Translations under genes and position numbers: made by a program
Assembly: GCF_037902255.1 (NCBI RefSeq)
Contig: NZ_CP147990.1
Coordinates: 930,001-962,000 of the forward strand
DNA length: 32,000 nt
Origin: Candidatus Electrothrix sp. GW3-4
GTDB lineage: Bacteria; Desulfobacterota; Desulfobulbia; Desulfobulbales; Desulfobulbaceae
Direction: 5' to 3'
The notes under the pieces: generated by a model
Told to the model about the DNA's origin: nothing
The model's database searches: none
The model's input: only the letters and a program-made list of their open reading frames with translations
Shown here: positions 2,088 to 32,000 of the stretch, piece after piece
How positions within the stretch are numbered: position 1 is the first letter of the stretch
How the letters are laid out: the number at the start of each line of letters is the position of its first letter

Positions 2088-2556
2088 CACTACTCTTTTT
2101 ACCCTCAAGCAGTTTCAGGAGCTGACCAAAGCGGAATGCACGGACCATTTGATGCAGCTCCTCGGCGAGTTCTGGATGATCAGCGTGGATATTGCCGATC
2201 ACCTCTTCTGTCGTTGCGATATCTTGCCTCTGCGCTGCGTTGCGCATTCTTGCTTGCTGTTCAGCCGTGTCGTTCTTTTGTTCCTCCTTATAACGATAGC
2301 GCACACCAAGATATTTTTCCATGACAGAGAAGAGTTCACTGGAGCGGAAGGGTTTATGTACTACTTCGTTACAGCCTGCCGCCAAAATTTTTTCGTGCTG
2401 CTCCTGAAAGACGCTGGCTGTGAGCGTGACAATCGTTACGTTGTCACCACCGGGTTGACATGGGGGGAAGCGAGAACGGCATTGCCGCAAATGACATCTG
2501 CAACAGAAACAGACAGCTGGTAATAAGGAGAACAAGACGGTAGCGTATACTGGTGC
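2071..2556 (-). pseudogene. Remnant of a response-regulator receiver domain (last third only) plus a ~70-aa tail
   Basis: ORF 2071..2691 (-) contains GGDNVTIVTLTASVFQEQHEKILAAGCNEVVHKPFRSSELFSVMEKYL, which matches beta4-alpha4-beta5-alpha5 of a REC domain. The phospho-acceptor Asp region is absent. The only in-frame Met start lies inside the IS. Its stop overlaps the ATG of the downstream kinase by 17 nt (GATGACAACAAGAAATAA), as in a coupled RR-HK pair. Confidence 0.5.
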
Positions 2557-2628
2557 TAGTGCTCTGTAAAATCTAAATTTTAGGGTAGCGTATTTAAAAT
2601 TAATGTAGCATGTTGTCCGAAAAAAAAA

Positions 2629-3087
2629 TTGAAAGAGGATTTCATGCCAAAAAAATACATTGTCCAATTGACTCCAAAAGAACGCTGTCATTTACAGGAG
2701 GTTATCAAAAAGCTTTCGGGGGGCAGCCAAAAAGTCCGTCGTGCTCACATCTTATTGAAAGCTGATGCAAATGGCCCCTGTTGGAAAGACAGCAGGATAG
2801 CAGAAGCATTCAACTGTAGGACAAAAACGGTTGAGAACATCCGTCAAAATTTTGTTTTGCACGGTTTTCAACAGGCTCTTGACGGAAAAAAACGTGCAAC
2901 CCCGCCTACTCCGAAACTATTGAATGGGGAGCAGGAGGTTAAAATCATTGCCACTCGTCTTGGTTCACCTCCGCCGGGATACGCAAATTGGTCACTGCGC
3001 CTTTTAGCCCGACATGTTGTTGAATTGGAAATAGTTCCGTCGATCAGCCATGAAACTATTCGCCAAGTAATAAAAAAAACGGGATGA
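2629..3087 (+). CDS. IS630-family transposase OrfA (HTH DNA-binding part)
   Basis: 152 aa, MPKKYIVQLTPKERCHLQEVIKKLSGGSQKVRRAHILLKAD..., matching the winged-helix/HTH N-terminal half of IS630 transposases. It ends VIKKTG* with a TGA overlapping the orfB ATG. Confidence 0.85.
   Translation: MKEDFMPKKYIVQLTPKERCHLQEVIKKLSGGSQKVRRAHILLKADANGPCWKDSRIAEAFNCRTKTVENIRQNFVLHGFQQALDGKKRATPPTPKLLNGEQEVKIIATRLGSPPPGYANWSLRLLARHVVELEIVPSISHETIRQVIKKTG
3072..3079 (+). promoter_or_regulatory. Probable -1 programmed frameshift site (A8 run) joining orfA and orfB
   Basis: The site is ATAAAAAAAACGGGATGA. orfB (codon phase of 3084) is -1 relative to orfA (phase of 3085). The -1 frame is open across the run (NKKNGMNN). 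A slip gives ...RQVIKKKNGMNNRKIQYWVIPP, which resembles the contiguous KKN-x-KPW-x-WxIPP junction of fused IS630 transposases. Confidence 0.55.
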
Positions 3088-3779
3088 ACAACCGGAAAAT
3101 CCAATACTGGGTTATTCCACCAAAACACGATGCGGAATTCGTGGCCAACATGGAAGATGTGATAGAGGTTTATGAAAGACCGTATAATCCTAATCATCCT
3201 TTTCTTTGTATGGACGAACAACCAGTTCAGCTGATAAAGGAAACTCGTTTACCTATCCCGGCAACTATAAATCATGCTAAACGCGTTGATTATGAGTATG
3301 AGCGTAACGGAACAGCCAGTATTTTCATGTTCACCGAGCCTCTTTCAGGCTGGCGTGAAGCCACAGCTCGTCCTCGGCGGACTAAAACAGATTGGGCGAT
3401 CGAAGTGGCTCGCCTCCTTGAAGGTCGCTATGCAGAATGTGAAAAGATAACGTTGGGTTGCGATAATCTCAACACCCATACAAAGGGAGCTTTTTATGAG
3501 GCTTTTCCTCCTGAACGTGCTCGTGCATTAGTACGCCGGATTGAATTTTGTTACACACCGAAACATGGTAGCTGGCTCAATATAGCAGAAAACGAATTGA
3601 GCTCCATGACTCGACAATGTCTTGCCAATCGTCGTATAGGAGATATCGAGACGTTACAGAAAGAGATTGCCGCATGGTCAAGCGATGTGAATAACACTCA
3701 ACGTGGTGTTGAGTGGCAAATGAAAATTTCTGATGCCCGTTGCAAATTAAAATCCGTTTACCCTAAAATTAAGTCGTGA
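3084..3779 (+). CDS. IS630-family transposase OrfB (DDE catalytic part)
   Basis: 231 aa with LCMDEQP, LGCDNLNTH and SWLNIAENELS, the DDE_3-like triad context. Confidence 0.85.
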   Translation: MNNRKIQYWVIPPKHDAEFVANMEDVIEVYERPYNPNHPFLCMDEQPVQLIKETRLPIPATINHAKRVDYEYERNGTASIFMFTEPLSGWREATARPRRTKTDWAIEVARLLEGRYAECEKITLGCDNLNTHTKGAFYEAFPPERARALVRRIEFCYTPKHGSWLNIAENELSSMTRQCLANRRIGDIETLQKEIAAWSSDVNNTQRGVEWQMKISDARCKLKSVYPKIKS

Positions 3780-3786
3780 CAGAGCA

Positions 3787-6700
3787 CTAGGTGTTATTTC
3801 TCTGTTTCCTGAGATACTTTGACATAACAGTGAACATCTCTTTTTCGTTAAAGGGCTTGCCGATATGTTCATTCATGCCTGCCTCTTTGCTTTTTTTCTG
3901 ATCTCTCGTCAGGACATTGGCAGTGAGAGCAATGACTGGCAGATCTTGATACTGCGGGAACTTACGAATCTCCTGACAGGCGGTGTAGCCATCCATGACC
4001 GGCATTTGGATATCCATCAGCACGCAGTCAAAGCTGGAGGTTTGCAAGATTTCCAGGGCCTCTGCCCCGTTGTTTGCCACCGTGACGACAATTCCCTTGC
4101 GGGTCAGGAGGAGCTTGGCGAGTTCCTGGTTGAGCTCATTATCTTCTACGAGCAGGACCTTGGCGCCCTTGAGATTGAGAAATTCTTCCTCAGAATTTGT
4201 TGCGTTCTTTTTCTTCTGCCTTCCCGGTTGTTCAGGCGAGTAAGCAACAAAGGGCAAGGTGAAATAAAAACGCGATCCTTGACCAGCGCCACTTTCAAAC
4301 CAGATTGTGCCACCCATCATTTCCACCAGTTTTTTACTGATGGAGAGACCGAGGCCGGTTCCTCCGAATTGCCGGGTGGTAGAGCTGTCTCCCTGACTGA
4401 ATGATTTAAACAGCTTGCTTTGTTGTTGGCTGTTCATGCCGATGCCTGTATCTGTAACACAGAACTCAAGTAAGACGATTTCATCCTGCTCATGGAGGCG
4501 TTCAACGTCTATTTTTACGTGGCCTCTGCTGGTGAATTTGACCGCATTATTTCCCAGGTTGATCAATATCTGTCTCAGGCGCAGTGGGTCGCCTTTCAGT
4601 CTTTCCGGTACCTCGGGTGAAATATCGATATCCAGGTGGAGCCCCTTTTCTGAGGCCTTTAATCCGATGATATTGGTAAAATGCTCAAAGACCTTGTCCA
4701 GGCGGAAGGGAATGGTCTCGATTTCAAGTTTTCCCGCCTCTATTTTGGAGAAGTCGAGGATGTCATTAATAATACCGAGAAGAGATTCCGCTGAGCTATA
4801 GACCTTCTCGATATAGTTTTTCTGTTCTGCATCAAGGGTCGTCTCCAGAGCCAGGCTGGACATACCGAGGATTGCATTCATCGGCGTACGAATTTCATGA
4901 CTCATATTGGCAAGAAATTCTGACTTTGCCTTGTTGGCTGCTTCGGCGCGTTGCTGAGCCTCTGCCAGTTTTTCGGTAATGTATTCGTATTCAGTCGTAT
5001 CTTCCAGGATTCCGTTGATGGCTAACAAGGTTCCATCGTCATTATAAACCGGATGGGAGGAGACCCTGATCGTGCGTAACTCACCGCCTGGATGGTGGAA
5101 CTGCATAGCATGCTGGATGAAGTCCGATTTTCCCTCTTTGATTCTGGAAAGATGAAAGCGGTGTTGCTCCAAGGATTCCGGGAGCCAATTGATGATTTTG
5201 CTCCAAGCTATGTTGCTCTTGGTTTTGTCTACTGCGCAGCCAAAGACCGAGCAGAGGCTGTCGCTGGCATAGGTCCAGACCTCCTCATCAGGAGACTGGC
5301 TGAAAACGACGAATTTGTCACCGATATTTTCGACCAGTCTGCGATATTTTTCCTGATTTTCTTGCAGCTGCCTTTCCTTTTTTTTCCGGTCGGTAATATC
5401 ATGGATGACCTGGAGGATTGCAGGGCCCGTGTCATCTTCTGTAAATTTTGTTGAAGTGATTTCAAAGATTCTTTCAGCACCGGAAGAGGGGAGAAAGCAG
5501 ACAGATTTTTCCTGTTCAATAGCGTTTTTTACATATATGCAGTCCCAGGGAGACTGTTGATCATCTGTGAGGAAGCCGCTGTTCTTGCCTGTCATATCGC
5601 CGAACCAGTTCATCATTACCTGATTCATGTAGCGAACCCTATGATTCGAGTCAATGATGATGAGTCCTTCACCTACCCTGGAGAGGGCATTGATAATGGC
5701 TGTGGATCGGGACTGACTCACTTCGAGATTGCTTTTGGCTCGTTGGAGGTCCGTAACCTTGTCATTGAGGAGGGCTGTGCGCTCACGGACCTCCTGTTCA
5801 AGAGCGGAGTTGGCCTCCCACATTTTTTGTTCAACCTTAGCCAGGTTACAGGAAGCATAACAGATAGCCAGGAAGAGAAGGAGAGTAACGCTGATAATCT
5901 TGAGACGGATTGTGGAAGTGAGCTCTGTCAGCTCCTGTTTGCTGATATGGGAGACCACCTTCCAGAGATAGTTGTCCGGTGTGTGGTGGAGAAGATGCAG
6001 CTCGCCAGCCCCACTTGTCTGAATGCCGTCCAGGGGATGTACCGTGCTCCAGATCCATAAACCATCTTTATTCTGCAAGGTACCTTTCTCTGTTTGTTGG
6101 ATTTTTTGCCAGGTTGTGGGGAATTTTTTTTCCAACCTCATATTTCTGAGATTGAACATGAAACCCCATTCATCAGCAGCATTCGGGCTAATCAACCAGT
6201 ACCCCTCCCTATTCAACACAGACACCCGGTTTCTGATTTTGAAGGTGGTGGCGAGAAAATTGTCCAGCATGTACCGGGCCGCGTAATTAATGATCAAAAG
6301 GCCACGTCGTTTGCCTGAGTGGTCGGTAAGGGGGGTGGCTATACGGATTGTCGGTTTAAAGGGGTATTCCAACTGACCACGTTCAATATTGAGGTCAAGA
6401 GGTGAGATGAAGATCTCTCCCAGAGAAAGTTTTAATGTTTCAGTAACATAATAACGACCGTTTTTATTCTGCAAGAGATGTGGCGGTGTCGTCTTGGGAC
6501 CATCAGATGCGTAATCGACACGTACTCGCTCCATCCCTGTTTCGTCGATCCAGCGAATCTGATCGTAATACCCTTTGATCCGAGAAAAATGGATGAAGTT
6601 TTCAGAGAGTCGTTCCAGGTTTTGTTGATCAGGATGTGTTATTTGATCAAGCAGACTGCTTTGACCAGCAAGATAGAGCAGGTCTCTGGAGATTTGTTTG

Positions 6701-11285: not shown

Positions 11286-11690
11286 GGGATTCTCCTTATA
11301 TGTATTCTTTGTGATTTACTGATAAAGCAGATAGATGAATTGAGCTGCTTTTCTGTTGAATATGAGGGCCAGACTCGCCCAAAAGAAAAAATGATCACTT
11401 TACACTATCTTGGTTATTGATGGTAGGGAAAATGTGGGGGGAGGGGATTTTCAGTCAATCAATCGTCTTTTCGTGAACGTGCGGAATGTTCAGGGGATCT
11501 ACCAAAAGACCGGGGTGCTTTACCGCTGTCAGGGTTATGATCTTCGCTTCGGTGTTCGGAAAACGCTCGGTGCGTCCTCCTTCTCTGATACGGTGTTTTT
11601 TGTCCGACTGCGGCTGAGATGACCTCACTAGCAGGGGATACAAAATAAATATACAGTTTTCACAGGGGATTATACGATTTTCTCCGGCAA

Positions 11691-11984
11691 AATTCATGCC
11701 GGAATCGGTCTGATGTACATTGGAATCGACGTAATTCCAATTGGAATTGCTCTGATTCCAATTGACTTTGGTCCAATTCCAATTGACTTTGCCTTGATTC
11801 CAATTGGAATTGCCCTGATGCAAATTTACTTTGACCCGATTCAAATTGACTTTACCCTGATTGAAGTGTGAATCGTCCCGTTTGAAGTTTAAATCACTCC
11901 GATTCAAATTTAAATTGGCCCGATGTAAGTTTAAATCGTCCTGATTCAAGTGTGAATCGTTTCAATTGAACCGGCAAAAAGACC
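11691..11984. repeat. Tandem array of about 13 strictly phased 21-bp units
   Basis: Units start at 11712, 11733, 11754 ... 11943 with no indels, for example aattccaattggaattgctct, gattccaattgactttggtcc and gattcaaattgactttaccct. Units 11733 and 11796 contain the perfect 14-bp palindrome ATTCCAATTGGAAT. Degenerate units lie at both ends. Confidence 0.9.
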
Positions 11985-12390: not shown

Positions 12391-12861
12391 ATGAACCTAG
12401 AAATTAAATGGCATCAGCCAGCCTCACTTGAAGACGGCGACGATGAGAATTTAATTTACTCAGTAGACGGATTAGAAGAGTGGGAAGACTTACCCGCAAT
12501 CTATATGTTTTGTAGAAATTATGGTGGAGTATTGGTTCCATTATACATAGGAAGGTCAAAAAACGTTGGTCAGCGCATTAAACAGCACCTCAATACAACA
12601 AGGATGATGAAATCTATTCAGAAAGCACCCAAAGGAGAGAAAGTGCTAGTTATCGGTGAATTCATCCCAAAGCCAGGTCAAAGTATTGATTCATCGTTAA
12701 AGATACTAGAAAAGACATTGATCGAACATGCACTAACAGAGGGCTATGAACTTATCAATAAATCCGGCACTAAGACTCCGGTACATACCATTTCTTTGAG
12801 TGGATATAAAGCTGCTAAAGATTTCTCTGGCCCTAAAATGTATGCTAAATCAAAGCGCTAA
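12391..12861 (+). CDS. GIY-YIG family nuclease-like protein (cassette A)
   Basis: 156 aa. PAIYMFCRNYGGVLVPLYIGRSKNVGQRIKQHL supplies the GIY...YIG...R motifs. LEKTLIEH supplies the Glu and ELINKSG the Asn. RBS AAGGA lies 8 nt upstream. Confidence 0.7.
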   Translation: MNLEIKWHQPASLEDGDDENLIYSVDGLEEWEDLPAIYMFCRNYGGVLVPLYIGRSKNVGQRIKQHLNTTRMMKSIQKAPKGEKVLVIGEFIPKPGQSIDSSLKILEKTLIEHALTEGYELINKSGTKTPVHTISLSGYKAAKDFSGPKMYAKSKR

Positions 12862-12962: not shown

Positions 12963-13109
12963 ATGAGCCCCGAACTTCTATATTTGCTGTTGTTCCCGCA
13001 GCAGAAAACAACAATGTTACTCTTTATGCATCCCAGGTTTATGTTCGCTATGTGTTATTAGCGTTACTGGTGATCTATCCTTGCGAAAGGTGCGAAGGGA
13101 GGGGCTCAT
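12963..13109 (+). ncRNA. Candidate retron msr-msd non-coding RNA
   Basis: A 9-bp inverted repeat ATGAGCCCC (12963-12971) / GGGGCTCAT (13101-13109) brackets ~129 nt directly upstream of the RT start. A G at 12972 follows the left repeat, the position of the branching G in known retrons. Internal hairpins are TGTTGTT...AACAACA, CCAG..CGCTA-loop-TAGCG..CTGG, and CCTT-GCGA-AAGG. Confidence 0.5.
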
Positions 13110-13120
13110 TCTTTCTTATT

Positions 13121-14650
13121 ATGACTAAACTAAAGTCAAAATTAAACAAAACGGAAGAAGTTGCTACGGATCAGTTTTCTGTTTTAAATTCAGGGCAGGA
13201 TGTCGCAAACTTTCTCGAAATCCCCTATGGCCAATTACTTTACCTTTTGTATAAAAGGCCAGACGAAAAAAAATATATCTCTTTTTATATCCCCAAAAAA
13301 ACAAAAGGCCGCCGTCTGATATCAAAACCGATGAAAGGGATTGATATTTTACAACAAAAATTAAAGCCACATTTAGAATCATTCTACCGCACAAAAGCCC
13401 CTGTTCATGGATTTGTTAAAGGGAAAAGTATAGTTTCAAACGCCTCGGCACACAAAAAGCATAAATACGTTTTAAATGTTGACCTCGCCGATTTTTATGG
13501 AACCATCAATTATGGCCGAGTCCGGGGGGTATTTCTTGCTACACCATTTAAATTTGGAGAGAAAGCTGCAAGTGTTTTAGCTCAGTTAATCTGCTTTCAA
13601 AACAAATTGCCTCAGGGGGCATGTACATCTCCTGTCGTCTCAAATTTAGTTGCATCGAATTTGGATAAAAAGTTGGTCGCCTTGGCCAAAAGGTATCATT
13701 GCCAATACACGAGGTATGCAGACGATATTACAATATCTTGCAACAAAAAAACCTTCCCTCATTCTTTGGCAACATACGAAGGAAACAATCCAATTACTGG
13801 AGAGACAATTATAGGTAAGCTACTAGAAGACACCATTGACAGTGCTGGATTCAGAGTAAACCATTCAAAAGTAAGGCTGCAAATACCATTTATTCGTCAA
13901 TCAGTAACCGGACTTACTGTCAACGAATTCCCAAATGTTAACAGAGATTTCATCAGAAGTGTTCGCGCTATGTTGCATGACTGGAAGACCAATGGCCTAT
14001 TGACAGCCGAAAAAAATTATATATCAAAGCATCCACAAAAGAAAATTGACATTCCAGAAGATAAGTTAGATGGAACTTACTTCTTGAAAGTATTTTACGG
14101 TAAGCTTTCATTTATCAAAATGGTCAGGGCAGATAAAGAGAACAATGACTCAGTAGTTTCTAACTTTGCTCTAAAAGCTGGAGAGCTCGACCCTAATCCT
14201 CCTAAATACATCAAAGAAATTATGAAAAAAAGTGAATCTTTTGACATTTTTATTGGTCACGCTAGTGAAGACAAAGACGAAGTAGCAAGACCATTGTTTG
14301 AGGAATGTGAAAAACAAGGAATTATTGCTTTTATTGATGAAATACATATCTCTTGGGGAGATTCATTAACCGAAAAAATTAATCATGCACTTGGAAAGTC
14401 TAAATATTTTTTGGCCGTTCTGTCTGAAAAATCAATTAAGAAATCTTGGCCAAGAAAAGAGCTTAACAGTGCAGTAGCGAGAGAAATAAGTGGTGAGCAA
14501 AAAGTATTACCTTTAATTGTCGGGGATCACAAAAAAATATTTGCGGAGTTTCCACTCCTAGCGGACAAATTGTTTATCCAATGGGAAGGAGACGTAGAGC
14601 AAATTGTGGATGAAATAAAAAAATTAAAAGCAAAGCATCCAACAAAATAA
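13121..14650 (+). CDS. Retron-type reverse transcriptase fused to a C-terminal TIR domain (cassette B)
   Basis: 509 aa from ATG 13121; the track ORF starts at an upstream GTG at 13052. RT motifs: YISFYIPKKTKGRRLISKP, HGFVKGKSIVSNASAH (NAxxH), LNVDLADFYGTI, LPQGACTSPVVSNL, YTRYADDITIS (YADD at 13715-13726), GFRVNHSKV and SVTGLTVN (VTG). The C-terminal ~130 aa reads FDIFIGHASEDKDEVARPL...GKSKYFLAVLSEKSIKKSWPRKELN, which is TIR-like. Confidence 0.85.
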   Translation: MTKLKSKLNKTEEVATDQFSVLNSGQDVANFLEIPYGQLLYLLYKRPDEKKYISFYIPKKTKGRRLISKPMKGIDILQQKLKPHLESFYRTKAPVHGFVKGKSIVSNASAHKKHKYVLNVDLADFYGTINYGRVRGVFLATPFKFGEKAASVLAQLICFQNKLPQGACTSPVVSNLVASNLDKKLVALAKRYHCQYTRYADDITISCNKKTFPHSLATYEGNNPITGETIIGKLLEDTIDSAGFRVNHSKVRLQIPFIRQSVTGLTVNEFPNVNRDFIRSVRAMLHDWKTNGLLTAEKNYISKHPQKKIDIPEDKLDGTYFLKVFYGKLSFIKMVRADKENNDSVVSNFALKAGELDPNPPKYIKEIMKKSESFDIFIGHASEDKDEVARPLFEECEKQGIIAFIDEIHISWGDSLTEKINHALGKSKYFLAVLSEKSIKKSWPRKELNSAVAREISGEQKVLPLIVGDHKKIFAEFPLLADKLFIQWEGDVEQIVDEIKKLKAKHPTK

Positions 14651-22417: not shown

Positions 22418-22750
22418 GCATTGAAGTGGCAGGCGACAGCCGTACCTAAAGGTGTTTTATACTGGGCACAGCTGATGTTTATATCATCCATCGCCATGAA
22501 GAAAACGTTGCTTCAATTCTCTGTCGTCCTTTTTCTCAGGCGACAAAACAGAACGGTCATGAACCGTTCCGTATGCATCATGACAAAGGCAAACCTTAGT
22601 TCAACTAAGCGGGTGCCCTGCTTTCCGATCGGAAACGGAAAGCTGATAAAGCCACAGCCGTCGCGAGGCGGTGTCGGAAAGCCACGGATCTCCAGGGAGG
22701 AGACAGCCGGGTTGCCTGCTTTACCTATAACCTATATCGGGAGGTATGTT
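22418..22750 (+). other. Long structured 5' leader; a possible riboswitch or cis-regulatory RNA, class not identified
   Basis: About 330 nt lie between the predicted promoter and the strong RBS/ATG at 22751. Stable hairpins: GAACGGT/ACCGTTC (22551-22569), CTTAG-TTCAA-CTAAG (22595-22609), GCTTTCCG/CGGAAAGC (22620-22643), and ACA(G)CCG/CGGTGT. The motif AAAGCCAC(A/G)G occurs twice. Confidence 0.3.
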
Positions 22751-23041
22751 ATGAAATCTTTATTCTATTCAAGTACATTTTCCAAACGTAACAACACATC
22801 ACTTGCACCGTCCTCACCTTTGGCTACTCGTACAGTGCCGGTTAGCGGCTTTAAGCTGGATAAAAAGAACAGTGTAGGAAAAGAAAAGAATAATCGGGCA
22901 GTCCGTCGCAATACCCGTTTTTCGCCTGGCCTGCTCCTTGATTACACCCTTTTTTCCTACATATTGGCAGTTGATGCAGGGCTGACAGCAGAAGTATTTC
23001 TCCGCGACCGGCTACGGGGCAAGAGAAGTCTTCCGGCATGA
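22751..23041 (+). CDS. Hypothetical small protein (96 aa)
   Basis: An internal ATG of track ORF 22421..23041, with a strong RBS GGGAGG 6 nt upstream. No recognisable domain. Confidence 0.3.
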   Translation: MKSLFYSSTFSKRNNTSLAPSSPLATRTVPVSGFKLDKKNSVGKEKNNRAVRRNTRFSPGLLLDYTLFSYILAVDAGLTAEVFLRDRLRGKRSLPA

Positions 23042-23649: not shown

Positions 23650-25399
23650 CCCACATTCCGCACGTTGACACATAAAAAAATATTTTATAACCTGCTGCCT
23701 CAAAAAGACATTTAATAAATCAACCAGGCAGCAGGTATGGAAAACAACACAACGATTTTACCACAGGAATGCTCAAGTAAACTCCTCAATCACTTGGGCC
23801 TAGTCGCGGGTATGTATGACGAACTCGGACTTGGGGAGCTGATTGACAGTCTGATTCATCAGGATAAAGAAAAGCGAGTTGTCTCAGTTGGTCAGGCAGT
23901 TAAGGCAATGGTTCTTAACGGGTTGGGCTTTGCGAATCGGGCATTGTATCTGACCCCGCATTTTTTCCAGGATAAACCGGTAGATCGACTCATCGGAGAA
24001 GGCATTGAGGCCCAGCACCTGAACGATACTGTTTTGGGCCGGGCCTTAGAAGTGATTTACGAGCATAATCCCGAAGAGTTATATTCGCAGCTTGCAGCTA
24101 GGGCAATTGGTCGTCTAGGGCTGCTGGCACGTTTTGGTCACTTGGATTCAACGAGTTTTCATACCGACGGTCGCTATCCAGCCAACGGATCAGAAGAGGA
24201 AGAAGGTGTTATTCGGATCACAAAAGGCTACAGCCGTGATCATCGTCCGGATCTGAACCAGATCGTGTTGCAGCTCATTTGCGAACGACAGGCTGGCATC
24301 CCGCTTCTGATGAAGCCGTTAAGTGGTAACAGTAGCGATAAAACAGATTTTCGGGAAACAGTGCAAGCGCATATTGATCAGATGAAAAACGATTTCAGCC
24401 TGGAATATCTGGTTGCGGATAGTGCGCTCTATACAGCGCAAACATTAAAAGAACTGAGCATGATATTGTGGATTTCCCGTGTACCGGAGACATTGAATCT
24501 GTCCCAGGAGATCATCCATGAAGTAGCTTCAAATCTGATGCAGGATCCTGAAAAAGCAGCATCTCGCAGTCTCGGGGTAGTTTATGGCGATGTCAGGCAG
24601 CGCTGGTTGGTTGTCTATTCGCCTGAAGCATATCAACGGGGACGCAAGACCGTAAACAAAAAATGCCTCAAGCTGAGCACAAATGAATCCAAGCAATTCG
24701 ATAAATTGTGCAAACAGGATTTTGCCTGCGAGGCCGATGCATTGAAAGCACTGTCCCGTTTTGAAAAAAAGCTGAAAATACTCTCAATTCATGACGCTCG
24801 TGTTGTTGCTTTACCTCGCCATAAGGGCAAAGGACGGCCAGCCAAGGGCAAGAAACCGGACTTTTATGTTTACCGCATTGAAGGCAACCCAGCCTCCCTG
24901 CTTCAGGAGAGAACCCGATTGTTGGAACGAAAAAGCTGTTTTATTCTTGCAACGAATCAGTTGGACTGCGAAGAATTGTCCGACGAGGAACTCTTGAAAG
25001 TGTACAAAGATCAGCAAAAGGTTGAACGGGGTTTTCGTTTCCTCAAAGATCCTATGTTTATGGCTTCAACGCTTTTTTTAAAATCCCGAAAACGTATCAT
25101 GGCCCTGATGATGGTTATGACGCTTTGCCTCCTGGTGTACGCCGCGTTGGAATATCGCATCAGACAAGCGCTCGAAATAAATAATGAAACATTTCCCAAC
25201 CAGAAAGGAAAACCTGCCCCTAACCCTACTGCTCGTTGGGTATTTCAGTTTTTTTCAGGAATTCACCTGCTGCTTGTCGGCGGAATGCAACAGCTGGTCC
25301 TGAATTTAAATGAACATCATTTGCGTCTGCTGAAGCTGTTGGGTGGGAGATATGAAAAATTATATTCTGGAAATGGATAGAGGGTATGCTGAATGTGGG
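23650..25399 (+). mobile_element. IS1634-family (IS4-related) insertion sequence, 1750 bp
   Basis: Terminal inverted repeats are CCCACATTCCGCA (left) and TGCTGAATGTGGG (right), matching 12/13. A 6-bp direct repeat CCATGG sits at 23644-23649 and 25400-25405. It carries a single 547-aa transposase. Confidence 0.8.
23737..25380 (+). CDS. IS1634-family transposase
   Basis: 547 aa, with HLDSTSFHTDG...GYSRDHRPDLNQ...VADSALY...YKDQQKVERGFRFLK, motifs typical of IS1634/IS4-group DDE transposases. Confidence 0.8.
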   Translation: MENNTTILPQECSSKLLNHLGLVAGMYDELGLGELIDSLIHQDKEKRVVSVGQAVKAMVLNGLGFANRALYLTPHFFQDKPVDRLIGEGIEAQHLNDTVLGRALEVIYEHNPEELYSQLAARAIGRLGLLARFGHLDSTSFHTDGRYPANGSEEEEGVIRITKGYSRDHRPDLNQIVLQLICERQAGIPLLMKPLSGNSSDKTDFRETVQAHIDQMKNDFSLEYLVADSALYTAQTLKELSMILWISRVPETLNLSQEIIHEVASNLMQDPEKAASRSLGVVYGDVRQRWLVVYSPEAYQRGRKTVNKKCLKLSTNESKQFDKLCKQDFACEADALKALSRFEKKLKILSIHDARVVALPRHKGKGRPAKGKKPDFYVYRIEGNPASLLQERTRLLERKSCFILATNQLDCEELSDEELLKVYKDQQKVERGFRFLKDPMFMASTLFLKSRKRIMALMMVMTLCLLVYAALEYRIRQALEINNETFPNQKGKPAPNPTARWVFQFFSGIHLLLVGGMQQLVLNLNEHHLRLLKLLGGRYEKLYSGNG

Positions 25400-27785: not shown

Positions 27786-28065
27786 GAAAATATATTGAAT
27801 TATGTGATTTTATGACGATCGGGCAGGGGGTTGAGGGAAAAAGGCGGGGCGGTCCCGGTACGGTGTTGCGGTGGGGCCTGCGTTCGGGATGATTTTCTGC
27901 GCACGATGGAGCGGGAGAAGTACCTACGTATGAGGGAGGAAGATGCCTAGTTAGGAAGGAGGCTCATAAGTAGTTATCTCTCTCCTTCCTACCTAGTGCT
28001 CTGTAAAATCTAAATTTTAGGGTAGCGTATTTAAAATTAATGTAGCATGTTGTCCGAAAAAAAAA

Positions 28066-28524
28066 TTGAAAGAGGATTTCATGCCAAAAAAATACATTGT
28101 CCAATTGACTCCAAAAGAACGCTGTCATTTACAGGAGGTTATCAAAAAGCTTTCGGGGGGCAGCCAGAAAGTCCGTCGTGCTCACATCTTATTGAAAGCT
28201 GATGCAAATGGCCCCTGTTGGAAAGACAGCAGGATAGCAGAAGCATTCAACTGTAGGACAAAAACGGTTGAGAACATCCGTCAAAATTTTGTTTTGCACG
28301 GTTTTCAACAGGCTCTTGACGGAAAAAAACGTGCAACCCCGCCTACTCCGAAACTATTGAATGGGGAGCAGGAGGTTAAAATCATTGCCACTCGTCTTGG
28401 TTCACCTCCGCCGGGATACGCAAATTGGTCACTGCGCCTTTTAGCCCGACATGTTGTTGAATTGGAAATAGTTCCGTCGATCAGCCATGAAACTATTCGC
28501 CAAGTAATAAAAAAAACGGGATGA
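28066..28524 (+). CDS. IS630-family transposase OrfA
   Basis: The protein is identical to 2629..3087. Confidence 0.85.
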   Translation: MKEDFMPKKYIVQLTPKERCHLQEVIKKLSGGSQKVRRAHILLKADANGPCWKDSRIAEAFNCRTKTVENIRQNFVLHGFQQALDGKKRATPPTPKLLNGEQEVKIIATRLGSPPPGYANWSLRLLARHVVELEIVPSISHETIRQVIKKTG

Positions 28525-29216
28525 ACAACCGGAAAATCCAATACTGGGTTATTCCACCAAAACACGATGCGGAATTCGTGGCCAACATGGAAGATGTGAT
28601 AGAGGTTTATGAAAGACCGTATAATCCTAATCATCCTTTTCTTTGTATGGACGAACAACCAGTTCAGCTGATAAAGGAAACTCGTTTACCTATCCCGGCA
28701 ACTAAAAATCATGCTAAACGCGTTGATTATGAGTATGAGCGTAACGGAACAGCCAGTATTTTCATGTTCACCGAGCCTCTTTCAGGCTGGCGTGAAGCCA
28801 CAGCTCGTCCTCGGCGGACTAAAACAGATTGGGCGATCGAAGTGGCTCGCCTCCTTGAAGGTCGCTATGCAGAATGTGAAAAGATAACGTTGGTTTGCGA
28901 TAATCTCAACACCCATACAAAGGGAGCTTTTTATGAGGCTTTTCCTCCTGAACGTGCTCGTGCATTAGTACGCCGGATTGAATTTTGTTACACACCGAAA
29001 CATGGTAGCTGGCTCAATATAGCAGAAAACGAATTGAGCTCCATGACTCGACAATGTCTTGCCAATCGTCGTATAGGAGATATCGAGACGTTACAGAAAG
29101 AGATTGCCGCATGGTCAAGCGATGTGAATAACACTCAACGTGGTGTTGAGTGGCAAATGAAAATTTCTGATGCCCGGTGCAAATTAAAATCCGTTTACCC
29201 TAAAATTAAGTCGTGA
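28521..29216 (+). CDS. IS630-family transposase OrfB
   Basis: It differs from 3084..3779 at two residues: I62K, and G125V next to the second catalytic Asp. Confidence 0.85.
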   Translation: MNNRKIQYWVIPPKHDAEFVANMEDVIEVYERPYNPNHPFLCMDEQPVQLIKETRLPIPATKNHAKRVDYEYERNGTASIFMFTEPLSGWREATARPRRTKTDWAIEVARLLEGRYAECEKITLVCDNLNTHTKGAFYEAFPPERARALVRRIEFCYTPKHGSWLNIAENELSSMTRQCLANRRIGDIETLQKEIAAWSSDVNNTQRGVEWQMKISDARCKLKSVYPKIKS

Positions 29217-29478
29217 CAGAGCACTAGGCAGTTTAGAATCTCACAAACGTTATTGACTTTATCTCATAAGCACTATCGAGATTATCTCATACGTGCTTGT
29301 GAGATGAAGTCACACGGGCGTGTGAGATTGGGTCGAACGTGTTATTGTGGGAAAGGTGGGCGGGTGGTGGAGGTTTTTTCGGAAGGGCTGTTGAGGGAGA
29401 TTGAGGAGATAAAGGGAGCGGTAAAAAGCACATTTTGCAAAGCAGTAAAACACGAAACCTATTTAATCGTTCCTCTAA

Positions 29479-29811
29479 CTACGGTGTAATCTTACCATGA
29501 CGTTGAAGCCTCGCCCTGATTGCACCTTTCTTCCGTTTATGTATTACAGCAATCTCTTTAATTGTCTTGCCTGCGTCAAACTCCTCGCAAAGTTGTTGAT
29601 CCTCAGCTGTATCCCAAGATTTACCGGCACGTTCTGGCAATGCTTCGCGTCTTCGATCACTACGTTCGGCTCGCTCAAGTGCTCTTGCAGCAACGAATAA
29701 TGCACGAGTAACATTAGATTGCTGATACACACCGTCCAGTATTTGACCTGTATTCGGACAACGACCATCCGCTAACGATTCGATAATTTTGAGTGCCTCT
29801 GTATTATTCAT
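29479..29811 (-). CDS. Small DNA-binding-like protein (Myb/SANT- or sigma-70 region 4-like HTH at the C-terminus)
   Basis: 110 aa. The C-terminus SWDTAEDQQLCEEFDAGKTIKEIAVIHKRKKGAIRARLQRHG has a W-x-EED...IA...R-x-GAI-x-RL HTH pattern. Confidence 0.55.
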   Translation of the reverse strand: MNNTEALKIIESLADGRCPNTGQILDGVYQQSNVTRALFVAARALERAERSDRRREALPERAGKSWDTAEDQQLCEEFDAGKTIKEIAVIHKRKKGAIRARLQRHGKITP

Positions 29812-29873
29812 ATTCTGAACTCTTTTCAGTGGGCCTATAGTTTTTCATAATAATTAATTATAATAATGAAGTG

Positions 29874-29979
29874 TAAACGGATTGTCAACAGAAAGGTGTT
29901 TGAAACAAGAAGAGAAGCGCGGTTCAGGATGGCAAAAAAATACCCCCGCCGCAATACTGTGACAGAGGTAGGGTACATC
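29874..29979 (-). repeat. Junction repeat E1 (terminator plus -35 promoter element)
   Basis: One of three ~105-bp homologous elements. The minus strand reads CCUCUGUCAC-aguauu-GCGGCGGGGG-UAUUUUUUU, then GCCATCCTGAACCGCGC, then CTGTTGACAAT. A -10-like TATTAT lies 17 nt downstream of TTGACA. Confidence 0.75.
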
Positions 29980-30019
29980 TTCAGTCACCTTTTCCGTGAC
30001 CAGGAGAGGACACCGGGAG

Positions 30020-30205
30020 TTAAACAGTCTTTTTCCCCGTCTGACCTGATGCTATCCGCTTCGGCGGAAACGATACTTTCGGATGCGTGCTCCTGCTTTC
30101 AGCTTCCTTGAACGCCTTGTAAATGGCATCCAGGTTATAATTATATTTCGCTGCATGAGCTTCCCGACATCTACGAATTTCAGCTACTATTTCATCCTGT
30201 CGCAT
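30020..30205 (-). CDS. Small hypothetical protein, second gene of an overlapping pair
   Basis: 61 aa: MRQDEIVAEIRRCREAHAAKYNYNLDAIYKAFKEAE... Its ATG overlaps the upstream ORF by 19 nt. Confidence 0.5.
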   Translation of the reverse strand: MRQDEIVAEIRRCREAHAAKYNYNLDAIYKAFKEAESRSTHPKVSFPPKRIASGQTGKKTV

Positions 30206-30360
30206 ACCAGAACTTCATCGTCCTCGTCCTTTTCTTCCATCAGACGGTAAAGAGCATGATTCTCAATAACCTCTTCCATCTTCTCAAACGTTTCGATGTC
30301 AAGCAGAACGGCTGTTCTCCGTTCCTGTTCGTTGACTATATACTGACGTGCAATCCGCAT
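30187..30360 (-). CDS. Small antitoxin-like protein, first gene of an overlapping pair
   Basis: Not in the ORF track (57 aa). Minus-strand translation gives MRIARQYIVNEQERRTAVLLDIETFEKMEEVIENHALYRLMEEKDEDDEVLVCDRMK*. It has a strong RBS GGAGG 7 nt upstream. The acidic C-terminus and the LDIETFEKMEE pattern recall Phd/YefM-like antitoxins. Confidence 0.5.
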   Translation of the reverse strand: MRIARQYIVNEQERRTAVLLDIETFEKMEEVIENHALYRLMEEKDEDDEVLVCDRMK

Positions 30361-30413
30361 GATGCTTCCTCCTCACTCTGCAATGAATCGTATGTATTCG
30401 TACAATAGCAGTG

Positions 30414-30521
30414 ATGAAACCTGATTGTCAACAGAGAGGTGCGTGTAATCAGAACAGGTGCGGTTCAGAATGGCAAAAAAATACTCCCGCCGCAAGACTG
30501 CGACAAGGGGTACGGCACATC
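30414..30521 (-). repeat. Junction repeat E2
   Basis: Homologous to E1 and E3. It begins immediately after the XisI stop. It has a hairpin plus U7, and TTGACA followed by 18 nt and TATTGT. Confidence 0.75.
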
Positions 30522-30864
30522 ATCCTTCGGCAAACCCCGTATACTTCCGTTTGTAAGGAGCCTGAAAACCGAGAACAATATCCTCCTTGGGCACACCGAG
30601 ACTCATGAGTTCCTCCGCAATACCTATTTCCGTACCGTTATGCTGCACCCAGATCTTTCCCTCTTTTATATCGAAATGCAGTATACAGCCGTGAATCCAT
30701 TCATATCCGTCCCAACCGACCTGAAACAGCTGGTAATGATTATGCTCTTTATCAAAAATATACTGTTTTTCAATAGAATCGGAGTCGGGTATCTGTTTTC
30801 CCAGCGCAAGAATAACATCCTGAATATAGGCTTGATAGAGAATCATTTTTTCTATTGTATCCAT
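30520..30864 (-). CDS. xisI: XisI-family protein
   Basis: 114 aa, with HYQLFQVGWDGYEWIHGCILHFDIKEGKIWVQHNGTEIGIAEELMSLGVPKEDIVLGF, typical of the XisI family. Confidence 0.8.
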   Translation of the reverse strand: MDTIEKMILYQAYIQDVILALGKQIPDSDSIEKQYIFDKEHNHYQLFQVGWDGYEWIHGCILHFDIKEGKIWVQHNGTEIGIAEELMSLGVPKEDIVLGFQAPYKRKYTGFAEG

Positions 30865-31274
30865 GAACGAATCTCCTCCTTCTCCGGGTCAAAGGTCAGC
30901 AAAGTCACGGCGTACTCACTCAGGACGCTCTGCACGAACGGACGACGAAAGAAGGACTCATAAACATCCAGGGGAACAGCCAAAAACAAGCCGCGTTCCG
31001 GTTCTTTTTGTTTCAAGGCTACCCTGTAGTCTAGGTACTGTCCTAACGCCGTATGAAAGTCTGAAAGAAACGAGGTGCCGAGGAAACTTTTTATTTCCAC
31101 AGCTATTTTCACCCCTTCTTTCTCCGCAGCCAGTACTCGTTCAGCCGCAAGATCAATATATACATTCATATCGCTCCCGGCCAGCTTAATCCAGTACGGA
31201 TCATGCGTAATGCTCCACCCTTCTTTGAATAAGGCATGTTTTACCTGCTGATGAAAAATATCCCGTGCTGACAT
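30852..31274 (-). CDS. xisH: XisH-family protein
   Basis: 140 aa from ATG 31274: MSARDIFHQQVKHALFKEGWSITHDPYWIKL...IAVEIKSFLGTSFLSDFHTALGQYLDYRVALKQKEPERGLFLAVP. It overlaps xisI by 13 nt. Confidence 0.8.
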   Translation of the reverse strand: MSARDIFHQQVKHALFKEGWSITHDPYWIKLAGSDMNVYIDLAAERVLAAEKEGVKIAVEIKSFLGTSFLSDFHTALGQYLDYRVALKQKEPERGLFLAVPLDVYESFFRRPFVQSVLSEYAVTLLTFDPEKEEIRSWIQ

Positions 31275-31325
31275 GCATCCTCTCAATGTTAGAGACCTAT
31301 CTACTTTTTTTACACAGTACCAGCA

Positions 31326-31430
31326 ATGAAACCGTATTGTCAACAGAGGGTTGCATGAAGCAAGAATAGACGCGGTTCAGCAAGGCCAAAAAATACCCCG
31401 CCGCAATGCTGCGACAGGGGCACATACATC
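31326..31430 (-). repeat. Junction repeat E3
   Basis: Homologous to E1 and E2. It begins immediately after the stop of 31429..31998. The hairpin is CCCC(U)GUCGC-agcauu-GCGGCGGGG plus a U-tract, followed by TTGACA, 18 nt and TACTGT. Confidence 0.75.
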
Positions 31431-31998
31431 AAAACAACTCGTAGTATGAGTCTTCACCCAGATGCCGAACATACTTTTTTACCAGTTCATCAAGCCTGTC
31501 CGGCTCCCCGACGTTGGTCCAGTCATCCACCGCTCCCTTGAAACAATACCTTCGAACTATGAACAGCCGTGCTTTATCATCAGTCAAGACAAACTCCATA
31601 TACGGTGAATAGTCGATGGCTAGCATCAGGAGTTTTCGGGCTTCCTTCAGTCCACTTCCGGAGCTGATGATCTCCAGAATTCTGTCAGTATCCTGGTTTG
31701 TTATGAATACACGGATTGTTTTTTGTCGTACATCAATTTTATAATACTCAATCTTTGAAAATCGCTCCATGCCTTGCTCCACGAGAGCAACTTCCTCATC
31801 AGTAATGATTTTCTTGGGTACTTTGCGACAATAAACCTGTCCACTGGGGTTTTCATAAATCTCAAAGCCTTCCGGCATATTGTCAAGGAGCTTCCCTTCG
31901 CTTTTCAGTGAGAAATAATAGCGAGGTTTCCCGGTTTTTGTCACACCTTCATGCAGATAGTATGTTTTTTCGAGACGGTTAACGTATTGTAGTGGCAT
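31429..31998 (-). CDS. Hypothetical protein (189 aa)
   Basis: A complete ORF with ATG at 31998 and no recognisable domain. It is followed directly by junction repeat E3. Confidence 0.6.
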   Translation of the reverse strand: MPLQYVNRLEKTYYLHEGVTKTGKPRYYFSLKSEGKLLDNMPEGFEIYENPSGQVYCRKVPKKIITDEEVALVEQGMERFSKIEYYKIDVRQKTIRVFITNQDTDRILEIISSGSGLKEARKLLMLAIDYSPYMEFVLTDDKARLFIVRRYCFKGAVDDWTNVGEPDRLDELVKKYVRHLGEDSYYELF

Positions 31999-32000
31999 TT

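Follow-up and report, generated by a model that had tools for sequence, protein, structure and literature searches.

Among described systems, integron/attC arrays (sedentary chromosomal ones, for example those of the Vibrio cholerae repeats (VCRs) in Vibrio, and clusters of attC sites lacking integron-integrases (CALINs)) consist of tandem, co-oriented small accessory cassettes that are rich in toxin-antitoxin (TA) genes, with a lineage-specific repeat of ~100 bp between the cassettes and a content that varies among relatives. Phage morons are autonomous promoter-gene-terminator units inserted between genes, and the Correia elements, Neisseria intergenic mosaic elements (NIMEs)/dRS3 and minimal mobile elements (MMEs) of Neisseria are short intergenic repeats with promoter/terminator activity, with cassettes being exchanged by homologous recombination. 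The present analysis concerns a stretch of 32,000 nucleotides (nt) from Candidatus (Ca.) Electrothrix sp. GW3-4 (contig NZ_CP147990.1, positions 930,001 to 962,000; hereafter the window), in which three copies (E1, E2 and E3) of a ~110-nt element divide small gene modules on the minus strand. The element joins a putative terminator half (T, hairpin and U-tract), a middle block (M) and a putative promoter half (P), in that order, and the array of modules ends in a non-coding flank (X). With moderate confidence, the element is read as a composite junction that delimits self-contained expression cassettes, the cassettes forming a variable gene array specific to cable bacteria.

The locus shares the above-mentioned traits of integron arrays. 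Unlike integrons, the element has neither the R''/L''-L'/R' layout nor an end-to-end single-stranded DNA (ssDNA) fold, no IntI or attI was seen, the halves of the repeat are separable and the cassettes carry their own predicted promoter and terminator, most integron cassettes being promoterless. As in morons, a cassette couples a predicted promoter to one to four genes and a predicted intrinsic terminator, with a GC content of the genes below that of the host; nevertheless, the context is non-prophage, the promoters and terminators are homologous among units and the arrays occupy fixed chromosomal sites. An intergenic promoter/terminator repeat and cassette exchange through conserved flanks are shared with the Neisseria repeats and MMEs, but the element lacks terminal inverted repeats and an uptake sequence, showed no target duplications among the few loci compared, and is of low copy number and uniform orientation. 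Like repetitive extragenic palindromic (REP) sequences and bacterial interspersed mosaic elements (BIMEs), T is a conserved imperfect palindrome just 3' of stop codons that also occurs solo after unrelated genes, although a genome has only 1-2 exact copies of it, a U-tract follows it and a conserved promoter is coupled to it, and no RAYT gene turned up in the sequences that were examined. Furthermore, at one locus (L043; loci are designated by L numbers) P, a cassette, T and X lie between two copies of the mnmG 3' end, similar to islands residing in the 3' ends of conserved genes, from which this unit differs by having no integrase and a size of only ~1.3 kb; the nif11 locus shows no duplicated gene end by eye, no formal search having been made. 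Literature searches (cable bacteria with integron or TA; XisH/XisI) did not find the element or cable-bacterium cassette arrays described. The parts (terminator, promoter) are ordinary, while their arrangement appears to be a new variant of repeat-delimited cassette arrays.

Structure of the junction element

A repeat search (direct-repeat families D4-D6 at 29872-29964, 30415-30505 and 31327-31416) and alignment confirmed the claim of an earlier note, made from the letters of the window, that E1, E2 and E3 are homologous. They are real copies of one ~110-nt element, co-oriented on the minus strand, with a mean column identity of 81% in a three-way MAFFT alignment. The right elements had been picked out in that note, although the spans proposed take in ~10 nt upstream of the hairpin and end before the -10 box. 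All genes at the three junctions are on the minus strand and the element is read on that strand. A 24-nt terminator core, TTGCGGCGGGGGTATTTTTTTGCC, allowed up to 3 mismatches, matched E1 and E2 only (0 expected from 100 shuffles), E3 escaping this ungapped pattern because of a 1-nt deletion; CTCTGTTGACAAT is present in E1, E2 and E3 (pattern match). The copies are given below, with scores from R1, a covariance model built from nine element copies; L001 is the Logan assembly contig of SRR28154589 that carries the window array and its continuation.

29858 to 29968, minus strand: E1, junction from the RelB-like/61-amino-acid (aa) cassette to the 110-aa cassette; R1 104.9 bits, promoter scan 11/12, alignment; hairpin 29968-29943, T-run 29942-29934, M block 29933-29917, -35 box 29888-29883, -10 box 29865-29860
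30400 to 30509, minus strand: E2, junction from the XisH-XisI cassette to the RelB-like/61-aa cassette; R1 116 bits, terminator and promoter scans; hairpin 30509-30484, T-run 30483-30475, M block 30474-30458, -35 box 30431-30426, -10 box 30407-30402
31312 to 31420, minus strand: E3, junction from a four-gene cassette (last gene 189 aa) to the XisH-XisI cassette; R1 116.6 bits, terminator scan, -10 box read from the alignment; hairpin 31420-31396, T-run 31395-31388, M block 31386-31370, -35 box 31343-31338, extended -10 (TGgTACTGT) 31322-31314
L001:7867-7986: E4, fourth copy, just beyond the window and 3' of nif11; hairpin and promoter as in E1-E3, middle block different

T is composed of an 11-bp G+C hairpin, CCCCTGTCGCA-nnnn-TGCGGCGGGGG, followed by TATTTTTT(T). 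The consensus-based terminator scan calls hairpin and T-run in E2 and E3; E1, the stem of which has one A.C mismatch, is uncalled. The hairpin lies ~10 nt from the stop codon in E2/E3 and ~51 nt from it in E1, instead of the 0 and ~40 nt given previously. Across 18 copies, pairing is maintained in 97% of the hairpin cells; sliding the partner columns lowers this to 46-73%. Variation is one-sided in nine of the 11 pairs, and nearly all changes lead to wobble pairing (C-G to U.G, A-U to G.U, G.U to A-U), which is valid on the sense strand only, the opposite strand acquiring mismatches; the consensus fold (RNAalifold) reaches -20 kcal/mol in sense versus -9.8 in antisense. A terminator at the RNA level fits because of these sense-strand-only wobble pairs and the difference between sense and antisense folds. 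With a G+C stem-loop and an immediate U-tract downstream of a stop codon, T is predicted to act as an intrinsic terminator.

CTCTGTTGACAAT lies ~25 nt past the M block, and P contains, in E1-E3, TTGACA, a spacer of 17-18 nt and TAnnnT; from the -10 box it is 30-45 nt to the start codon that follows. The promoter scan returned TATTAT (11/12) for E1 and TATTGT (10/12) for E2; the -10 box of E3, TACTGT preceded by TGn, is below the scan threshold, yet equals the family consensus, which in the alignment reads TTGACAAT, spacer and extended -10 TGnTAcTGT (TGnTAnnnT type). The -35 and -10 boxes, their spacing and the gene downstream are those of a sigma-70 promoter, and P probably acts as one. Apart from the boxes, the -35/-10 spacer GGTTTCATTGCTG is conserved, which is unusual in a plain promoter, and a similar TTTCATGCAAC stands just upstream of the -35 (alignments). 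Since both the spacer and the upstream TTTCATGC repeat are conserved, P may hold an operator, as the alignments suggest.

The M block, GCCnTnCTGAACCGC, starts at 29933, 30474 and 31386. It is found in most full copies, replaced in E4 (the nif11-proximal copy) and L030, and missing in L031 as well as in solo T and solo P. M is thus dispensable, and its candidacy as the key site of regulation or recombination, a role suggested earlier, is weak. The order of terminator, conserved block and promoter, dividing co-oriented small modules, does stand for E1-E3 at the sequence level. Pairs of copies share 75-97% identity in T, mostly 69-88% in M and, among the typical copies, 63-86% in P, and their flanking genes are unrelated; these segments (36-60 nt) hold too few differences for segment identities to track T with the gene upstream as against P with the gene downstream.

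Distribution of the element and variation of the arrays

A 19-nt core scanned GTDB-wide gave 71 matches, among which those in Electrothrix/Desulfobulbaceae and three other deltaproteobacterial ones were inspected, while the rest, in unrelated phyla, were taken as chance unexamined. Seven were confirmed by inspection and R1, namely in Ca. Electrothrix marina, E. aarhusensis (two), E. gigas, an Electrothrix sp. and the Desulfobulbaceae metagenome-assembled genome (MAG) S24.Bin023 (two), and the scan places exact T cores at 1-2 per Ca. Electrothrix species genome. With R1, full copies were obtained in L001/the window (four), L008 (three, in tandem) and L030, L031, L049, L057 and L095 (one each), and partial copies in L043, L060, L073, L074 and L095. 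All R1-found copies are within arrays and in gene orientation, the remainder of the 32-kb window and of a 20-kb stretch of L095 being free of further copies. A scan of JGI metagenomes added two T copies only, in which T is intact and P at most degenerate. No element copy was present at 14 nif11 loci of other Desulfobulbales (nif operons/nifHDK intact), or at the loci of more distant homologues of the 61-aa protein (L100-L105). A plasmid or phage origin was rejected, blastn finding no match to the element in PLSDB and INPHARED; an origin among IMG/VR viruses was likewise rejected, its two 19-nt-core matches being judged chance because R1 finds no significant match on either contig.

The element family is confined to marine cable bacteria (Ca. 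Electrothrix spp. and one Desulfobulbaceae MAG), in which it borders ~11 different cassettes in at least six genomes, including XisHI, RelB-like/61-aa, PIN-like/61-aa, HEPN, MqsA-like and PilP-like ones. Over 2.6 kb, the window strain shares ~91% identity with the E. marina representative. The search for further copies that the earlier note had called for has yielded a fourth copy just past the end of the window as well as others in different Ca. Electrothrix genomes, where the genes flanked are different.

BLAST of the array against the other loci, combined with reading of the sequences, revealed a common plan: an anchor gene, (T)P, cassettes joined by T-M-P, a last cassette devoid of T and flank X. 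Two chromosomal sites carry such arrays, one 3' of nif11 and the other 3' of mnmG. At the former, the window strain has nif11, four cassettes and X interrupted by an insertion sequence (IS) of the IS630 family; L057 (Electrothrix sp.) has nif11, a full element, a single 96-aa cassette and the start of X; and E. aarhusensis has nif11, a full element, a PilP-like gene, T with a variant promoter and a 583-aa gene, this adjacency being inferred because two contig ends abut there. At the latter, S24.Bin023 (L043) has mnmG, P, a PIN-like gene, the 61-aa gene, T, X and a second copy of the mnmG 3' end, and the E. marina samples (L095-L099) have mnmG, P, the PIN-like gene (disrupted by ISAzo13 in L095), the 61-aa gene, a full element, a HEPN_Swt1-like/PDC-M34B gene of 291 aa and X. 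The tandem array of L008 reads XisH'/XisI, then a 119-aa gene with an MqsA-like gene of 79 aa, then a gene of 96+ aa.

As had been anticipated for a cassette array, module content differs among genomes with breakpoints at or inside the repeat. The gene following nif11 and its element is different in the window strain, L049 and L057; XisI and its element are followed by the RelB/61-aa pair in the window versus the 119-aa and MqsA-like pair in L008; and the 61-aa gene and its element are followed by the 110-aa gene in the window and by HEPN in L095, while in L043 nothing intervenes and T directly abuts X. The cassette adjacent to X is different in every genome (110-aa gene, HEPN, 96-aa gene or none). 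The segment comprising the 61-aa gene and T is 89-90% identical between the window and the mnmG-site copies (L043, L095), with a different partner gene. In most cases, homology breaks off where T ends, just past the -35 or at the -10. T occurs alone in L074 (with an unrelated gene upstream) and at the last junction of L043, and with weaker M-/P-like remnants in L060 and L073 (the latter after nif11), whereas P occurs alone directly 3' of the mnmG stop codon in L043 and L095.

Gene modules, flank X and other features of the window

In gene orientation, L001 carries amtB/glnK, a NifB-like radical-SAM gene, a ferredoxin-like gene, GNAT, two small genes and nif11, followed by E4; thereafter come the genes for 195 aa, PilP-like, 196 aa and 189 aa, E3, XisH and XisI, E2, RelB-like and 61 aa, E1 and 110 aa. 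The modules in the window are as follows.

31429 to 31998, minus strand: 189-aa hypothetical protein, last of the four-gene cassette (195 aa, PilP-like 165 aa, 196 aa, 189 aa)
30520 to 31274, minus strand: XisH-XisI cassette, with XisH at 30852-31274 (Pfam E = 1.7e-54) and XisI at 30520-30864 (Pfam E = 1.1e-41)
30020 to 30360, minus strand: RelB-like/61-aa cassette, in which the RelB-like 57-aa gene (30187-30360) overlaps the 61-aa gene (30020-30205)
29479 to 29811, minus strand: 110-aa gene, last cassette of the array, with no T copy after it

The four-gene cassette starts outside the window, at E4, and its 189-aa protein matched no Pfam family. The XisH-XisI cassette is likewise bordered by element copies in L008. 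The 110-aa protein, earlier called a helix-turn-helix (HTH) protein, has a sub-threshold Sigma70_r4_2 match only (E = 0.037) and is at most a putative HTH protein; its gene matches in position the HEPN gene of L095 and the 96-aa gene of L057. Cassette families comprise XisHI, RelB-like and HEPN/PDC-M34B, with weak PIN and MqsA matches, and the GC content of cassette genes is 42-47% (one 50%) versus 53-56% in most of the housekeeping genes sampled. Exact look-ups of the 189-aa protein, XisI, the RelB-like protein and the 110-aa protein returned the same strain only.

The overlapping pair had been described as TA-like, which is borne out for its 57-aa member, a RelB-like antitoxin (Pfam E = 1.1e-17), while the 61-aa partner has no assigned family. 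Copies of the 61-aa gene are located as follows.

30020 to 30205 of the window, minus strand: 61-aa gene
L043:5482-5646: 61-aa gene
L095:10001-10186: 61-aa gene
L100-L105: genes for more distant homologues of the 61-aa protein

Wherever a partner is visible, the 61-aa gene is always the second of an overlapping pair and the partner varies: RelB-like of 57 aa in the window, PIN-like of ~133-172 aa in the mnmG arrays, L101, L104 and L105, and none visible in L100, L102 and L103. In the RelB-like/PIN-like swap, homology breaks exactly at the 61-aa start codon, and the alignments suggest partner swapping inside a TA-like module around this gene.

The nif11 anchor cluster (NifB-like radical SAM, ferredoxin-like, GNAT, two small open reading frames (ORFs) and nif11; L001:4732-7837) forms the tail of the nifHDK operon in other Desulfobulbales (L077/L085); in L001, amtB/glnK and not nifHDK lies upstream of the retained nif tail. 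The presence of an XisH/XisI cassette beside a nif tail recalls the fdxN-element excision genes of Anabaena, although this proximity is probably a coincidence.

Flank X, non-coding and conserved, ends every array whose distal end was readable, at both the nif11 and the mnmG loci, and is located as follows.

29229 to 29406, minus strand: left part of X, ~80% identical to L043:5804-5939 and L095:11338-11497
27993 to 29228, plus strand: IS630-family IS splitting X at CTAG (Pfam HTH_32, DDE_3), not part of the array system
27878 to 27992, minus strand: right part of X, past the IS630, 84-91% identical to L043:5922-6017 and L095:11480-11544 plus 11789-11843
L043:5800-6110, L095:11330-11843, L096:1490-1857 and L057:~150-200: X elsewhere

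In its left part, X harbours an imperfect palindrome of 93 bp that includes four or five AATCTCACA/TGTGAGATT motifs. X also has another palindrome (34-nt arms, bounded by CCTAGG) and ~45-nt repeats in variable number. With no Rfam match, X may possibly be an att/res-like site, a nested miniature inverted-repeat transposable element (MITE) or a non-coding RNA. The Logan contig breaks at the IS630 copy within X; this copy and another at 2556-3791 are 99.7% identical over 1236 bp, with two ORFs overlapping by 4 nt. In L095, a 135-bp MITE (11545-11680) occupies another CTAG of X. In L043, the last ~85 bp of mnmG occur twice (4760-4849 and 6117-6199, ~80% identical) around the 1.3-kb unit of P, PIN-like gene, 61-aa gene, T and X, a unit in which no integrase is present; the duplication shows that at least one island-type integration event took place.

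Elsewhere in the window, the following features were observed.

13052 to 14650, plus strand: reverse transcriptase (RT)-TIR fusion, PADLOC model of the RT-TIR type XII retron, E = 1e-171
12391 to 12861, plus strand: GIY-YIG ORF just upstream of the RT-TIR fusion
11698 to 11970: 21-nt tandem repeat of ~12 units (AATTG/CTTTG...GATTCCA), inside the minus-strand ORF 11455-11949, which would encode a 7-residue protein repeat
22641 to 22719, plus strand: c-di-GMP-I riboswitch aptamer (RF01051, 53 bits versus a gathering threshold of 35), the only gathering-level Rfam match in the window, lying inside the listed ORF 22421-23041, a possibly spurious gene without a Pfam family
23737 to 25380, plus strand: IS4-like transposase with an N-terminal DUF4277 domain

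Origin of the array and its significance

The statement of the earlier note that the element is not an attC holds. Folded as ssDNA on both strands, E1-E3 gave z values of -1.1 to +0.8 and no end-to-end stem, the consensus fold of the element shows the 11-bp T hairpin only and no whole-site hairpin, neither core sites nor R''/L''-L'/R' boxes are found in the alignments read by eye, and no IntI was seen. The sole AAC...GTT pair (CTGAAC ... GTTGACA) is complementary over at most 3 nt, ~35 nt apart and without inner repeats. No integrase or recombinase domain, Phage_integrase included, was detected in the window ORFs scanned or in the Pfam-annotated gene calls of L001 and L095. The cassettes are co-oriented but each stands behind a near-consensus promoter, so they are not promoterless cassettes of the integron kind. 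The array fails every test of integron membership despite its integron-like workings. Other classes were also tried and rejected. No known RNA family or riboswitch matched at E <= 1 in Rfam over 29200-32000. A DNA uptake sequence, suggested by the resemblance of M to that of Neisseria, is rejected by the restriction of CTGAACCG within the window to the three elements; beyond them, the M block shows no enrichment there. A MITE is rejected for want of terminal inverted repeats, the inverted end alignment scoring 5-8 against a shuffled mean of 6.2-6.8 in eight copies, and a many-copy dispersed MITE because the copies are few, array-bound and in a single orientation; among the loci compared (a small sample), no empty site differed by the element alone.

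In the favoured reading, that of a composite cassette boundary, T would halt transcription of the upstream module and P would restart it for the next one, and each module would be expressed by itself from a shared, probably co-regulated promoter. Recombination between copies of the element may add, remove and reshuffle cassettes, whereby the repeats persist, and this recombination together with selection on the T and P functions would keep the junctions similar. Homologous recombination between copies is the best guess for what moves the cassettes, favoured because no recombinase was seen and the breakpoints are not fixed; two direct copies may recombine to release a circle (RecA-type excision), which would re-insert at any other copy (Campbell-type). 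The earlier proposal of a cassette-style array with a reusable junction element is supported by both the distribution of copies and the variation of cassettes. Several observations nevertheless weigh against the favoured reading. Copies of ~110 bp that are 63-97% identical per segment are poor RecA substrates, and being so short and diverged they would recombine rarely. Some indels are off the element (for example, the 195-aa gene, inside a cassette, is missing in E. aarhusensis), the exchange of 61-aa partner genes breaks at a start codon and not at the element, and the difference between L043 and L095 is not a clean element-by-element deletion. Support for the hairpin is only moderate because no double compensatory changes occur among the 18 copies, a shuffle control carrying little weight at such low variation. 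Furthermore, the sample amounts to ~6-8 fragmentary genomes.

The main rival, an integron-like site-specific system with an unrecognised recombinase, in which the element or the T hairpin would be the cassette site and X an attI-like platform, would account for tandem, co-oriented, tiny accessory or TA-like cassettes around a ~110-bp lineage-specific repeat, for the architecture of anchor gene, cassettes and X at two loci, for the high variability of the cassette next to X, for the clustered res-/att-like inverted repeats of X, and for an L043 array and X bracketed by two mnmG 3' ends as an integrated island would be. The negative results on recombinase domains, folds and boxes speak against such a system, as do breakpoints at variable places (end of T, past the -35, at the -10) and the occurrence of T and P apart, and it is judged unlikely. 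The absence of mobility, with an old tandem duplication of a promoter-gene-terminator unit held by purifying selection on shared regulation and by occasional gene conversion while its genes were replaced piecemeal, is similarly improbable: genes between copies are unrelated and their replacement would still need recombination at conserved ends, the same element and 61-aa-plus-T segment occur at the nif11 and mnmG loci with different partners, and cassette sets differ among close relatives, even though paralogous copies are no more alike than orthologous ones, conservation centres on the hairpin, -35, spacer and -10, and some indels lie away from the element. Less likely still is a non-autonomous mobile repeat of the MITE/Correia/REP kind that carries a terminator and an outward promoter and was inserted independently between pre-existing genes. 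Its length of ~110 bp, intergenic position and promoter/terminator content are like those of Correia/ERIC-type (enterobacterial repetitive intergenic consensus) elements, and T alone follows unrelated genes in L074 and L060; on the other hand, terminal inverted repeats are within the shuffled background, every copy is oriented as the flanking genes are, copy number is low with none elsewhere in the window or in the 20 kb of L095, copies cluster in arrays at two loci, and the flanking genes are themselves variable accessory genes. A more speculative proposal, of low but not negligible probability, is that of an undescribed gene-capture platform of cable bacteria, in which expression-ready cassettes would be inserted beside X, as a palindrome-rich landing region, at two or more sites by an unlinked or unrecognised recombinase, an analogue of integrons built from different parts.

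Were the element merely conserved regulatory DNA, it would serve as a useful regulon marker and be otherwise ordinary. If the reading as a cassette boundary is true, the element would provide a natural “insulator” part (terminator with regulated promoter) from an uncultured, electrically conductive lineage, as well as a marker for variable regions in the fragmented assemblies of cable bacteria, where breaks tend to coincide with these repeats. It would also make it possible to ask, in a tractable setting, whether short functional repeats suffice to maintain a cassette system through ordinary homologous recombination. Cable bacteria would then keep part of their accessory and TA gene pool as plug-in transcription units with standard boundaries, achieving an integron-like modular gain and loss of small genes, with expression signals for each cassette, without attC or IntI.

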